Of a DNA stretch of 64,000 nucleotides, positions 25,982 to 29,656 are shown piece after piece (position 1 is the stretch's first letter; every line of letters begins with the position of its first letter). The notes under the pieces were generated by a model. The model did not search any database, had not been told where the DNA came from, and was given only the letters and a program-made list of their open reading frames with translations. Both the position numbers and the translations under genes were made by a program. Source of the DNA: a phage; the sequence record PZ445443.1; one strand, written 5' to 3'.

Positions 25982-26401
25982 ATGAATATTAAATCTGATA
26001 ATCCGGCATATAGCTTTGATAACGCTTTTTGTCACGGTCCGGCGGCGAAAGGTTTTGAAATTGATGGTAAACTAGTTATTGTCAATGTTGACGGGGAAGA
26101 GGTTGCAGTGTATCCGGTGGCAGACGTTAAAAGCCGTTTACAATGCCGCATCGATGTTACCGCATATCAGCTTGATCCGGTCCGCGTAGTCTCCCTGGTC
26201 CTGGAGGAAGAAATCAAAGCAATGCACCACAGCAATAAGTTTATCGGTGACGCGCAAGATAATATGAAGGTATGCCGCTATAAAGTTAATGAAGTGCTTA
26301 AAGAATATGGATTTAAGGATCTGATGATCAAACGTGATGAAAAATTTCGTTATCGTAACGACCTGGCAAATCGAATCTATGAAATATACGAATCATTATA
26401 A
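25982..26401 (+). CDS. hypothetical protein
   Basis: ATG after TAAGAGGTAAA RBS; last gene of forward block. Confidence 0.55.
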   Translation: MNIKSDNPAYSFDNAFCHGPAAKGFEIDGKLVIVNVDGEEVAVYPVADVKSRLQCRIDVTAYQLDPVRVVSLVLEEEIKAMHHSNKFIGDAQDNMKVCRYKVNEVLKEYGFKDLMIKRDEKFRYRNDLANRIYEIYESL

Positions 26402-26420
26402 TTTTTTAACTGAATTATCA

Positions 26421-26444
26421 AGGGGCTTAGGCCCCTTTCTTTTT
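26421..26444 (+). terminator. rho-independent terminator
   Basis: AGGGGC-TTAG-GCCCCT hairpin followed by TTCTTTTT. Confidence 0.7.
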
Positions 26445-27052
26445 GTCTGCTCTTCCCCTACCATAAACGGCCATACATGGCAAGTGGAATAATTGACGAG
26501 CCATCAATCCCACACACTGTACAAATATACATGTAAAATAACTATTGCATAACTTTTCATTGTGTGGTAGCAGGGCCATTTTTACACGTTTTTCCTTCCA
26601 AAATTGCACGTAATGCAGCATTTGCACAAAATTTAACCTGATGCATATCTTCAATAGCTTGTCAACAACTAAAAATCTTTATAAGTCATACACTTACATA
26701 ACTACAAAAGCGTTTTCTACGTGAAAAATCGAGTATAACTATAGCCGCCAGACCTCAGAATTTACGTACGCTCGACATTCTATAGCCTGCTAAGCATTTA
26801 TTCCAACCATAGAATAACGGAATAGTCAATACCTGCATAAAATAATTATTCGTGTAAACTGCATAACATAAATCGGCCCAGGTGTCAACATTTTTCGTAA
26901 ACAGTCCGAAATTATCACTATGAGTTATCATAAACAGGGAAATCTTTAGTCGTCTAATGTTTACTGTACATTACTATACTGACTGGAATCATTAGATGAC
27001 TAAGAGAAAGATAAGAAATAATTAACAATACAATTATTTTATCTGTAACAAT

Positions 27053-27322
27053 AAGGCAACTATGCAAACGAATGGCATGGCGCGACGGAGTCGCGACATA
27101 ATATAAAAGCAGTAACCATCACCCCCGTGATAGTTTGTCTGCAAACTATTAATCAGATCATAGTTGCCTTGTATTTAGTTAATCATGACATAACAAGCAA
27201 GGCAACTATAGATCTGCTAATAGTTGCCCTGCTTTTATATTATGTCATAGAAACACCCGAAGGGGTGACCAAAGGTCACCTGGCATGGCCAGTGAAAGAT
27301 TATTAACTTGCTAATAGTTATC
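27053..27322. repeat. array of 11 bp motif AAGGCAACTAT in both orientations (about 5 copies)
   Basis: AAGGCAACTAT at 27053 and 27199; reverse complement ATAGTTGCCTT at 27160; close variants at 27220 and 27314; flanked by duplicated GCAAACGAATGGCATGGC (27064, 27325). Confidence 0.6.
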
Positions 27323-27354
27323 ATGCAAACGAATGGCATGGCTGATTATCGGTG

Positions 27355-27440
27355 TGTAAACAGTCAATCATGTAAATGGTTAGCATGTGAACAATCAGGA
27401 ATGTAAACAATCCAGTGTGTAAACTAATAGGTGTGTAAAA
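27355..27440. repeat. six phased TGTAAAC-like repeats at about 16 bp spacing
   Basis: TGTAAAC 27355, TGTAAAT 27371, TGTGAAC 27386, TGTAAAC 27402, TGTAAAC 27418, TGTAAAA 27434. Confidence 0.6.
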
Positions 27441-28029
27441 GTGTCATGTTGTGTCAGTTAGGTCACATTATGTCATATTGTGTCAGACAAGTTTTTCTCC
27501 TCTTTGTCAAGTGCTGCATGAAAAATTTACAATCTGGTATGGTAGCATTTTTGCGGCCCTGTTTACATTCAGGGGTGTATGTATAATCCTTGTTGTGTGG
27601 GCGTTTAGACGTCTGGACGGTCAGAAGTCTGCAGGTTAATATCTAATCTATTGGCTGCTAACTATATCCCACACAAATAGTAAGAAATATGATTGTTATA
27701 TGCGTAAACTGTAACTCATGTTATCAATCCCTGTATGTATCGCCAGTGGTGCGCATAATGGGTATTATGTTAAATTGCCCGTAATGATAAAGGTTCTCAC
27801 AATGATAGGTATTCTCATTCACCCCCACAAAATAGATTGCAAATGTTGTGCCACTGTGTGAACGGCCTAGCCTATTAATTTGCCTCACTGCCTCGATATT
27901 TGAGAATTGTTATAAGAATGAGAAGTATTCCCATTTCGTCCGCCTGGCAGCACTCCTGTAGGTCAGGTCAAAATCGTGGTAGAACTGGACCTGTTCAGAT
28001 ATTTCTGGCTGACTCTTCAGGTCTGTGTG

Positions 28030-28555
28030 GGAAAAGCCAACCTCTCCGGCGGGGCAGGGGATAGGTCAATTAAAAAATTTACGTGGTGTATGAAGCGCTC
28101 TTCAGGTAAGGCAGGTATTATGGGATGAAACCCTCTTCAGGCAATGATATTTGTGGGTGTGATATTTGCTGGAAAGCCAGATATGACGGGACTCCCGGCG
28201 GGGCAGGGGTGGTACAGACAGGGAAAATATGAAGGATGTGGTTGGGTAGATTGATCAGACAGGTAGAGTATGGAATATGTTACAAGTATGTTAAATATGG
28301 AGGTTGAATATCTGTAGGATTTGTGTGTAAAATCAAAGACTTAAGTGGTGTTGTGGTATTTTCTATAAATAATTCAAGTTTAATAGGTGATATTTGTCTC
28401 TATCCGCTTTGTGTGGTAAACAGATTCAGATGAGATTGGTTTACAAGTGTATACATAATATACAAATTAAAGATACAAGAAACCCCCCTCCCCCTTCGGC
28501 TACCATTCACCTTTTCCTCTGACTGGTACTTAAACACTTATTCAGACTCTTCAGG
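28030..28555. repeat. dispersed direct repeats CTCTTCAGG (x4) and CCGGCGGGGCAGGGG (x2)
   Basis: CTCTTCAGG at 28030, 28115, 28150, 28547; CCGGCGGGGCAGGGG at 28063 and 28212, each preceded by AAAGCCA. Confidence 0.55.
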
Positions 28556-28905
28556 TTATCACCTATATATCATATGGCAGTGACTGGTGTCCTCCGGCCC
28601 CTCTTTCGTCACCCGTCCGCTTCGCCATGCTAATGCCATAGCCAATGGTTCGGTTGTTCACCCTGTTCACTCAGGTGTATCTCCATACCCCTTCAAACCG
28701 AAGAGAACAGAAAACCCGAATTACTCGGTAAAAGAAAAGAGAAGAACTTAATTTTATCAGGATAGGCAAGAATGTCAAGGCATGACTGCTCACTAAACAA
28801 GCAAACAGTCATGTGTGGGAGGTAAGTGATTGTGGTGGTAGGAAATTTAGTTGAAAGATGTGTTATAGGTGCTTCCAGCACTTTAGCCGGGCAGCTAATT
28901 GTGTG

Positions 28906-29121
28906 TCAGTCCAGCGGTTCATCCTCTACTTCACTGAAATCAATGTTCATGGTCTCCTCCCAACCATCGATCTCAGCACAAGAGTGGAGTTCTTTAGGGT
29001 TTACTCCCAAAGCCTCAGCAACAGAGTCTATATTTAACACCTCTGGCAGGTATGATTCATCAAATTCAAGGTAAATCAGGCCACGAGTGTTGTCAGCCCC
29101 ACCAAATATTTCTATCTTCAT
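28906..29121 (-). CDS. hypothetical small acidic protein (MKIEI-type N-terminus)
   Basis: ATG after AGGAGA RBS; last gene of reverse block. Confidence 0.5.
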   Translation of the reverse strand: MKIEIFGGADNTRGLIYLEFDESYLPEVLNIDSVAEALGVNPKELHSCAEIDGWEETMNIDFSEVEDEPLD

Positions 29122-29242
29122 GAAATCTCCTCTGGAAATGAGAGTGTGAACAGGGTTTTATGCGTTCCAATACGCTGGAATTATACACGTTTGCCTCTTC
29201 AGGCCATGCTTTAGCATGAGGAACCTGTGTGGGCTCGGTGCT

Positions 29243-29656
29243 TCATAGTCTACCACCTCTGAACTCTTCGTGCTCAGGCATAATAGAGAACCAGATATCT
29301 ACGATGTCTCCCCACGTTAGGTCATCAGCCTCAGGATCTACCTGGAGCGAAGATGGAGAATCTTCAGAATCGAAGTTTTCCTCTTTCACTGGCTCAGCCA
29401 AGGGACATATAGCCACTCCTTTGGATGTCTCTTCAGATGCATGTGTGTTTATCATGTTCCACCCGTGAGTATTCCGGCAACAGCCACTATGGACGTAATG
29501 ATCATCAGAATCACCACCAAAACCTCTGACAATGTTTTCATTGTGTATCCCATATTCTCCAAACGATGTGTGGATACTATCACTGGAGCGACAATGTGTC
29601 AACAGAAACGCCGCGAGGGTTTGGTTAAAATCCGAGCGTATGGTGATTTGGGTCAA
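29243..29656 (-). CDS. hypothetical protein (start uncertain)
   Basis: Co-oriented ORF; acidic C-terminal half; alternative ATG at 29455 would give 70 aa. Confidence 0.35.
   Translation of the reverse strand: MTQITIRSDFNQTLAAFLLTHCRSSDSIHTSFGEYGIHNENIVRGFGGDSDDHYVHSGCCRNTHGWNMINTHASEETSKGVAICPLAEPVKEENFDSEDSPSSLQVDPEADDLTWGDIVDIWFSIMPEHEEFRGGRL

Follow-up and report, generated by a model that had tools for sequence, protein, structure and literature searches.

A one-sided array of a conserved nine-nucleotide box beside the inferred terminal repeat of an rV5-like coliphage

What purpose do short, repeated sequences serve in a part of a phage genome that carries no genes? The question is raised by a 64,000-nt stretch of phage DNA (sequence record PZ445443.1; hereafter the window, whose numbering is used throughout), in which an initial annotation had reported a short sequence in four dispersed copies and a longer repeat in two between positions 28030 and 28555, and had suggested a packaging or terminase recognition region or a terminal-repeat boundary. 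The window belongs to an rV5-like coliphage of the genus Vequintavirus; a megablast search with positions 26400-29000 retrieved 121 phage records at 90-99% identity, nearly all of them Escherichia rV5-like myoviruses of this genus. The layout of open reading frames (ORFs) places the end of the plus-strand gene block at 26401 and that of the minus-strand block at 28906, and the repeats therefore lie in a 2.5-kb gap without genes between two convergent transcription units. Judged by sequence and position, the repeats are real conserved DNA boxes that probably belong to a genome-end control region. Our favored reading, a tentative one, is that their selected function is transcription toward or into the direct terminal repeat (DTR), or the control of such transcription by a putative protein that binds the 9-nt box, and that the purpose lies in the genome ends.

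The short repeat, CTCTTCAGG, was found in five non-coding copies, all on the plus strand:

28013-28021, plus strand: copy 1, which reads CAGACCTGAAGAGTCAGCC on the minus strand; homologue, by position and sequence, of the type B element of the sister genera (see below).
28098-28106, plus strand: copy 2, with no -10-like hexamer at a promoter-compatible offset.
28133-28141, plus strand: copy 3, whose minus strand overlaps the promoter-like sequence TTGCCT-16-CATAAT (28144-28117).
28547-28555, plus strand: copy 4, inside a near-invariant block.
29195-29203, plus strand: copy 5, intergenic; on the minus strand, a TATAAT follows 9 nt downstream and the ATG of a 71-aa gene approximately 74 nt downstream.

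The first four are those of the initial annotation, copy 1 lying 9-17 nt before 28030. Spacing between copies was irregular (85, 35, 414, and 648 bp), and the array spanned 1.2 kb. In 2000 first-order Markov simulations of the gap, the number of copies averaged 0.035 and did not exceed one, compared with the five observed. Over the whole window, nine exact copies were present, again all on the plus strand, compared with 0.43 expected from shuffles; the four outside the cluster were located within minus-strand genes, so that the sense strand reads CCTGAAGAG, and are probably an effect of coding bias. CCTGAAGAG is the 9-mer as read on the minus strand, in the direction of the DTR. No non-coding copy was found beyond the 1.2 kb beside the gap center, either in the window or in the first 100 kb of phage EdH4 (approximately 72 kb of which lie outside the window), where the only copy was in a gene. 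An IMG/VR scan for two copies 20-50 nt apart returned at least 120 unrelated contigs and was uninformative: nearly all spacings were multiples of 3, which points to coding repeats of the Pro-Glu-Glu type. On inspection, GAAGAGG was discounted as a Shine-Dalgarno sequence, as consistent start codons were not seen after it.

No ORF of 60 aa or more was present within 27945-28692, and 1-nt and other non-triplet indels separated related genomes in the repeat region of a 17-genome alignment, which argues against coding. The repeats thus have no coding context, as had been proposed, and their distance of 350-900 bp from the 3′ end of the reverse block had been given correctly, the last minus-strand gene ending at 28906. 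In the alignment of the gap from these 17 Vequintavirus genomes, 83 of the 85 combinations of genome and copy retained an intact 9-mer. There was no variation in copies 1, 3, and 4, copy 2 was intact in 16 of 17 genomes (broken in FV3), and copy 5 was likewise intact in 16 of 17. By comparison, invariant non-coding 9-mers made up 16% overall and 11% in 27945-28480. The comparison with related phages that the initial annotation had proposed therefore found the repeats conserved. Conservation was also concentrated in a separate block, which contains the best promoter match of the gap:

28480-28850, no strand assigned: near-invariant non-coding block of 370 bp that holds copy 4, the best promoter match, and an inverted G5AG6 box (28483-28494, minus strand).
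28778-28751, minus strand: best sigma-70-type promoter match in the gap, TTGACA-16-TAAAAT with a TG present, matching at 11 of 12 positions.

The block showed at least 95% identity in 116 of 118 Vequintavirus records (98-99.8% in most of the rows shown), and in 50-nt bins it was conserved above the flanking genes. The promoter match is directed toward the DTR, with no ORF downstream.

Vequintaviruses carry a non-permuted terminal redundancy of 458-459 bp, the DTR, in this gap (PMC6563267, PMC6658697, PMC7471380). Its position in the window was assigned by homology to phages with read-mapped ends (EdH4 and LL12). The EdH4 record has a 459-bp sequence repeated exactly at its two ends, which corresponds to window positions 27944-27486, and the repeat called by PhageTerm in LL12 (104966-105424) corresponds to the same interval. 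In addition, the Pr121LW record starts at 27486, and the start or end of several further records falls close to this position. The resulting features are:

27486-27944, no strand assigned: inferred 459-bp DTR, the physical genome ends by homology to EdH4 and LL12.
27340-27485, plus strand: left-flank array of approximately 15-nt units (GTGTAAACA, GTGAACA, TGTGTCA), variable among strains in copy number and sequence.

The left array ends exactly at the left DTR boundary (TGTGTCA followed by GACAAG), and conservation shifts sharply at 27486, from the hypervariable array on the left to near-invariant sequence on the right. Both boundaries lie within short palindromes, TGTC-A-GACA (27481-27489) and GCC-T-GGC (27942-27948). 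On the other flank, copy 1 begins 69 bp outside the right boundary; in many other strains this distance is greater by 29 or 55 nt, owing to an indel hotspot directly after the boundary. A check on the genome ends had been recommended; done by homology, it placed the ends of EdH4 and LL12 at 27486-27944, near the repeats and not elsewhere. The guess of a terminal-repeat boundary was thus right in location, the array starting 69 bp from the DTR, but the repeats are not the boundary itself, because the distance varies by indels of 29-55 bp and the array spreads over 1.2 kb.

The longer repeat of the initial annotation was also real. AAAGCCA occurs at 28033-28039 and 28173-28179, each time followed by the exact 15-mer CCGGCGGGGCAGGGG (the G-box), and a further box accompanies copy 1:

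28033-28060, plus strand: repeat unit 1, AAAGCCA and G-box CCGGCGGGGCAGGGG (28046-28060); the minus strand is C-rich and is followed by TTGGCTTTTCC.
28173-28209, plus strand: repeat unit 2, AAAGCCA and G-box CCGGCGGGGCAGGGG (28195-28209).
28024-28031, plus strand: companion box TGTGTGGG of copy 1, which reads CCCACACA on the minus strand.

G-box 1 lies 102-116 nt from the DTR boundary, and a diverged inverted G-box, CCGAAGGGGGAGGGG, is present on the minus strand at 28485-28499. The two longer units are collinear, in the order CTCTTCAGG, TGTG(T)GGG, AAAGCCA, and G-box, with spacers of different lengths. Similar companion boxes follow copy 3 (28152-28157) and copy 5 (29226-29233), and CCACACA(A) is found 2-25 nt upstream of CCTGAAGAG in many instances from all three genera considered here. 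G-box 2 is well conserved among relatives, most of which carry CCGGCGGCGGGGAGGGG or a similar sequence as G-box 1; the exact 15-nt identity of the two G-boxes is therefore strain-specific. The whole window contains five boxes of the form G5A(A)G4-6, three of them in the gap region. The T-rich tail TTGGCTTTTCC follows the G-box unit on the minus strand; the terminator scan did not call these units in the window, and at the GAP31 counterpart the scan called a terminator, on the opposite strand. An IMG/VR scan for CCGGCGGGGCAGGGG returned at least 120 unrelated GC-rich contigs and one rV5-like contig, and was of no help in finding relatives.

Outside the genus, loci were compared in KPP-1, which has a 514-bp DTR at 116316-116829 (PMC9862379), in Proteus phage Mydo (Mydovirus), and in PVP-SE1 and GAP31 (Seunavirus). 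The motif C[T/A]CTTCAGG was present in four copies in KPP-1, two in Mydo, five in PVP-SE1, and five in GAP31, compared with a simulated mean of 0.05-0.08 per locus, and 14 of these 16 copies occurred on one strand and on one side of the DTR-homologous block. The orientation of loci between genera was set from the DTR blocks, because the ORFs that flank the gap in the window had no tblastn match in the KPP-1 locus. Over the flanks of the sister loci, no alignment with the window was obtained. A few short blocks can be aligned only when the sister loci are reverse-complemented, and are then collinear at window positions 27017, 27494, 27746, and 28007; the sister array therefore agrees with that of the window in both side and strand. 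Positions 28007-28023 (copy 1 with its flanks) are identical at 17 of 17 sites to GAP31 locus positions 2856-2872. One G5A(A)G4-6 box per sister locus was also present, at 90-145 nt from the DTR and on the equivalent strand. A one-sided, oriented motif array with a G-box beside the DTR is thus, on this sequence comparison, a feature of the subfamily, and no other observation argues as strongly for a function of the repeats. As an additional DTR example, the phi92-like phage BME3 was considered and not used, its record repeating the junction with Ns and lacking CTCTTCAGG. In that record (PP239276.1), the DTR-containing junction segment occurs approximately three times, with Ns in one copy, and looks like an assembly artefact.

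Small genes are found between the boxes in the sister genera and are absent there in Vequintavirus; by this comparison, Vequintavirus has lost the small genes and retained the boxes. The same loss would be expected if the repeats were functionless remnants of duplicated promoter or terminator cassettes from the lost gene cluster, conserved only because the genus is young. The appearance of units 1 and 2 as an old duplication with indels, and the degenerate promoter hexamers at copies 1, 2, and 4, are consistent with such decay. Nevertheless, this explanation is very unlikely when 83 of 85 copies are intact against an 11% frequency of invariant 9-mers in 27945-28480, and when genera whose surroundings no longer align still share an identical 9-mer and an identical stretch of 17 nt around copy 1.

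A one-sided array beside a mapped genome end also fits the terminase suggestion of the initial annotation, here read as direct recognition sites for terminase (its small subunit or an accessory protein) in a pac-like or cosB-like array that would mark the packaging side independently of transcription. The array starts 69 bp from the mapped boundary, its copies share orientation and side, and 14 of the 16 sister-genus copies have the corresponding side and strand. All non-coding copies found were on the DTR flank, and the boxes have been retained in DNA that carries no genes. Several short oriented boxes near the cut and on one side likewise make up known pac and cos sites, among them the small-subunit arrays R1-R3 of lambda cosB, the pac hexamers of P1, and pacL/pacR of SPP1. 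These arrays occupy 100-300 bp with fixed geometry, whereas the present array is spread over 1.2 kb, far more than in characterized pac or cosB sites, with irregular spacing. The short, fixed distance from box to cut that characterizes pac and cosB was not found, the distance from the boundary to the first box being 69 nt here and 29 or 55 nt more in other strains. Moreover, the sister-genus boxes are located at each intergenic promoter or terminator of the small-gene cluster, which is the pattern of a transcription regulator, and both the block at 28480-28850 and the DTR-boundary sequences are equal or better recognition candidates. Binding of terminase to the boxes would be a prediction from sequence, and we regard direct recognition as a live but rather unlikely rival, with the sequence contexts pointing at least as much to transcription toward the DTR. 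Candidates for TerS lie outside the window, among the small genes next to TerL in EdH4.

These contexts were read on the CCTGAAGAG strand (the minus strand of the window, toward the DTR) for 20 motif instances. In well-formed instances, CCTGAAGAG spans the final two bases of the -35 hexamer of a sigma-70-type promoter together with the seven spacer bases that follow. Three types were distinguished in the sister genera. In type C (KPP-1 1242, GAP31 1868), TTGACC-17-TATACT, which scored 10 of 12 in the scan, is followed by a ribosome-binding site and a start codon. In type B (KPP-1 2200, Mydo 2699, GAP31 2858), TTGACC-17-TATTCT or TATGCT with an extended -10 TG (9 of 12 in KPP-1 and GAP31) has no gene before the DTR, and the same sequence can alternatively form a hairpin of 8-9 bp that carries the motif at the apex. 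In type A (KPP-1 1190, Mydo 1991, GAP31 1816, PVP-SE1 1823), the motif caps a terminator-like hairpin, which is followed by TTTTCTTTT. By sequence, copy 1 of the window is a degenerate homologue of type B. The promoter-like sequence at copy 3 scored 9 of 12, and copy 5 has a perfect -10 (TATAAT; CATAAT in some strains) with a poor -35. Overall, a -10-like hexamer was present at an offset of 9-11 nt, at which the box overlaps the -35 and spacer, in 7 of the 20 instances, compared with a background of 9.6%. The T4 MotA box offers a partial parallel: it is centered near -30 and works with a normal -10, and in the same 7 of 20 instances the conserved box lies at approximately -31 to -23 upstream of a -10. 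It differs in that most instances here have no -10, some are hairpin loops, and the set is confined to the DTR flank.

The hairpin contexts raise the alternative that the signal is an RNA or single-stranded DNA hairpin with a CUGAAGA apex, which would serve in processing, antitermination (boxB-like), or protein loading toward the DTR. In the sister genera, the motif caps two hairpins with the same apex and different stems, GGGAGCC-UGAAGAG-GCUCC with a U-run and GGGUUGAC-CUGAAGA-GUCAGCCC, and the apex resembles boxB of lambda nutL, which is GCCCUGAAGAAGGGC, in that CCUGAAGAGG stands at the apex of a GC stem. In contrast to lambda nut, however, the loop is GAAG (4 nt), one base shorter than the GNRA-like pentaloop of boxB, no boxA-like sequence was present with the window copies or the sister-genus hairpins, and the window copies are stemless; to our knowledge, there is no N-like protein. 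All five window copies can form stems of 3 bp at most, yet their 9-mer is strictly conserved. Rfam 15 gave no match at the gathering threshold in the window and none even at E ≤ 1 in 26300-29300, and the conserved segment at 28470-28745 (276 nt) showed no RNA structure signal on either strand (z = -0.70 and -0.09). The hairpin explanation is therefore hard to reconcile with the window copies, and we consider it quite unlikely.

The reading in which transcription runs toward the DTR is favored because the boxes, the orphan promoter-like elements, and a strong gene-less promoter have all been kept and all aim at the DTR. Under this reading, cassettes consisting of CCTGAAGAG, an upstream CCACACA box, and a C-rich box followed by TGGCTTT (on the minus strand) would load host RNA polymerase, and transcription would proceed toward and into the DTR, which in replicating DNA is the concatemer junction. 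The near-consensus promoter at 28778-28751 would act likewise. A putative sequence-specific protein would bind at the invariant 9-mer and thereby control junction-directed transcription. Because most Vequintavirus cassettes have no downstream gene, the selected product would be the act of transcription or a non-coding RNA, with a possible role in genome-end processing (concatemer cutting and packaging, as for phiOR and the CJ pause site in T7) or in priming. We infer that transcription takes place from these sites, that a protein binds the box, and that genome-end processing is the purpose, from the presence and excess of the boxes, their strand, side, and distance from the DTR, their conservation in the genus and recurrence in two others, and their promoter and hairpin contexts. 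A more specific version would unite the CCTGAAGAG boxes and G-boxes with the invariant block at 28480-28850 as the region in which packaging of Vequintavirinae genomes is initiated. Host polymerase would be driven from gene-less promoters into the junction and coupled to terminase cutting at the DTR boundaries, a T7-like link between transcription and packaging that would need no phage RNA polymerase; to this version we attach little credence.

Several points weigh against a role in transcription. Of the seven promoter-like instances, approximately four are independent when those related by homology are counted as one. Copies 1, 2, and 4 have no acceptable -10 and poor -35 hexamers (3-4 of 6 positions), and in an IMGVR 137-kb genome a 46-nt insertion separates copy 5 from its -10. 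In total, 13 of the 20 instances are not promoter-like and four are in the loops of terminator hairpins; the box is therefore associated with promoters in part and cannot be equated with a promoter element. Hairpins at the G-box are weak and variable (-8 to -16 kcal/mol), with weak and inconsistent covariation among relatives. Transcription from these sites would head outward, to the nearby end of the virion DNA, so that a circular or concatemeric template has to be assumed. The literature yielded no Vequintavirus transcriptome.

Promoters directed into gene-free, repeat-rich DNA with several motif families could instead mark a replication origin, with the boxes as initiator sites or as promoters that prime through an R-loop, as at T4 oriF and ori(uvsY), and with the AT-rich DNA at 28300-28480 as the unwinding element. 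The succession along the transcript from the 28778-28751 promoter, in which a G5AG6 run (28494-28483) is followed by AT-rich DNA, and a peak of cumulative GC skew in the gap are in keeping with an origin. The peak coincides with the switch in transcription direction, however, and needs no origin to explain it. Iterons comprise at least three regular repeats of approximately 17-22 bp, whereas the boxes have a 9-nt core and irregular spacing. No DnaA-box-like match was noticed on reading the sequence, no dedicated scan having been made, and no replication-initiator gene is adjacent to the gap in the annotations seen. An origin is thus very doubtful here. With respect to the G-run, the minus strand at 28483-28494 reads GGGGGAGGGGGG and then TTTCTTG, on the strand transcribed from the 28778 promoter and ahead of the AT-rich stretch. 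This arrangement resembles the G-run and T-run of mitochondrial conserved sequence block II (CSB II), at which transcripts stop and prime replication. The near-invariant block, taken by itself, is a further candidate for a pac, ori, or regulatory site.

For transcription into the junction, the closest precedent would be T7, with the host enzyme taking the place of the phage polymerase. In T7 and T3, the terminal repetition at the concatemer junction is flanked by SRL and SRR arrays, phiOR reads into the junction, and a CJ pause site and pacB are present; in T7, pausing of the polymerase at CJ is needed for concatemer processing. This is reportedly the picture drawn by Dunn and Studier in 1983, Chung and Hinkle in 1990, and Zhang and Studier in 2004. 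The window phage shares with these phages a short non-permuted DTR (here by homology to EdH4 and LL12), arrays of short repeats on both flanks (GTGTAAACA and TGTGTCA units abutting the left boundary, CTCTTCAGG from 69 bp beyond the right), promoters that point inward, and gene-less DNA. It differs in that its promoters are of the host sigma-70 type, the rV5 paper annotating no phage RNA polymerase, in that the motif is unrelated in sequence and spread over 1.2 kb, in that each flank has a different repeat family, and in that it is a 137-kb myovirus; a packaging role would here be drawn by analogy. Cis-acting repeat arrays and promoters that flank a phage terminal repeat are thus a known kind of element. 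New, as far as the literature found shows, are this box itself, the conservation of its one-sided orientation between genera, and its occurrence in both promoter and hairpin contexts.

Phages of the rV5 type are widely isolated and are used in therapy and biocontrol cocktails. Their genome-end anatomy is now described in terms of the inferred DTR boundaries, two flanking arrays, the 9-mer and G-box across three genera, and the invariant 370-bp block. These are candidate cis-elements for end formation, packaging, or junction-directed transcription, and are relevant to engineering (rebooting of synthetic genomes, transducing particles, and the choice of the right start coordinate for a genome). 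Should transcription into the junction turn out to be required, a mechanism not known outside T7-like podoviruses would extend to large myoviruses that depend on host polymerase.

The DTR and its edges showed further features. Just inside the boundaries, TTCTCC..TTGTCAAG at one end and GTCCGCC at the other resemble the KPP-1 boundaries after reverse-complementing (locus positions approximately 2517 and 3030), which suggests conserved cut-site contexts in the window phage and KPP-1. An approximately 35-nt block of the DTR at 27746-27780 (..GTGCGCATAATGGGTATTATGTTAAATTGCC..) is 83-93% identical in the Mydovirus and Seunavirus DTRs, the rest of which barely aligns, and it overlaps the promoter-like TCGCCA-17-TATTAT. 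Another promoter-like sequence, TTGTCA-18-TACAAT at 27504-27533 (plus strand), lies 18 nt inside the left DTR end and points into the repeat; its bases give TTGACA on the other strand. A 47-aa ORF in the DTR (27718-27861), which overlaps the 35-nt block and resembles an ORF of KPP-1, was judged to be non-coding: its variable sites were distributed 14/17/13 by codon position, A135 has a stop, one contig has frame changes, and the likeness to KPP-1 is at the DNA level. Motifs of the form AATGA(G/T)A..ATTCTCATT, which are Fur-box-like, were seen within the DTR of the window phage (27780-27935) and of KPP-1 (locus positions 2890-2970), and the junction region of BME3 contains a close match to the Fur-box consensus (AATGAGAATAATTATCATTTGC). 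The other DTR flank of KPP-1 carries four ATGATAA..TTATCATTTG repeats.

Two ORFs lie between copies 4 and 5 of the array:

28693-28881, minus strand: 62-aa ORF in the near-invariant block.
28906-29121, minus strand: 71-aa gene, the last of the reverse block, annotated in relatives; the sole ORF downstream of any motif copy (copy 5).

The near-invariant block also contains a weak hairpin with a T-run (28728-28716), an inverted repeat (CATGACTG..CAGTCATG, 28781-28813), and two TGTTCAC repeats. ARAGORN found no transfer RNA or transfer-messenger RNA gene in the window. The gap DNA at 27945-28900 had no similar DNA in E. coli genomes, and host origin or mimicry was thereby ruled out for this segment.

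In the rV5 genome, the gap was drawn without comment as a grey "non-coding" box by Kropinski et al. 2013 (PMC3606486). No published account of the boxes was found in the literature, in which the only statement found on the gap was that the DTR is located there. In the MiataMamis and NHEP1 records, the 2.5-kb gap is tiled with 15-20 tiny coding sequences annotated as "hypothetical protein" (30-60 aa); in the aligned gap regions examined, the indel pattern of the 17-genome alignment argues that these are not genes. Approximately 19 records labeled "UNVERIFIED: Campylobacter phage" (MG0656xx) are 89-97% identical to E. coli rV5-like phages in this region and are classified as Vequintavirus, and their host labels are probably wrong or the preparations mixed. 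The left part of the gap contains an exact 20-nt direct repeat (ATGCAAACGAATGGCATGGC, at 27062 and 27323), a perfect 18-nt inverted repeat with arms 116 nt apart (27095-27112 and 27229-27246), and several ATAGTTGCC/GGCAACTAT repeats within 27062-27342.

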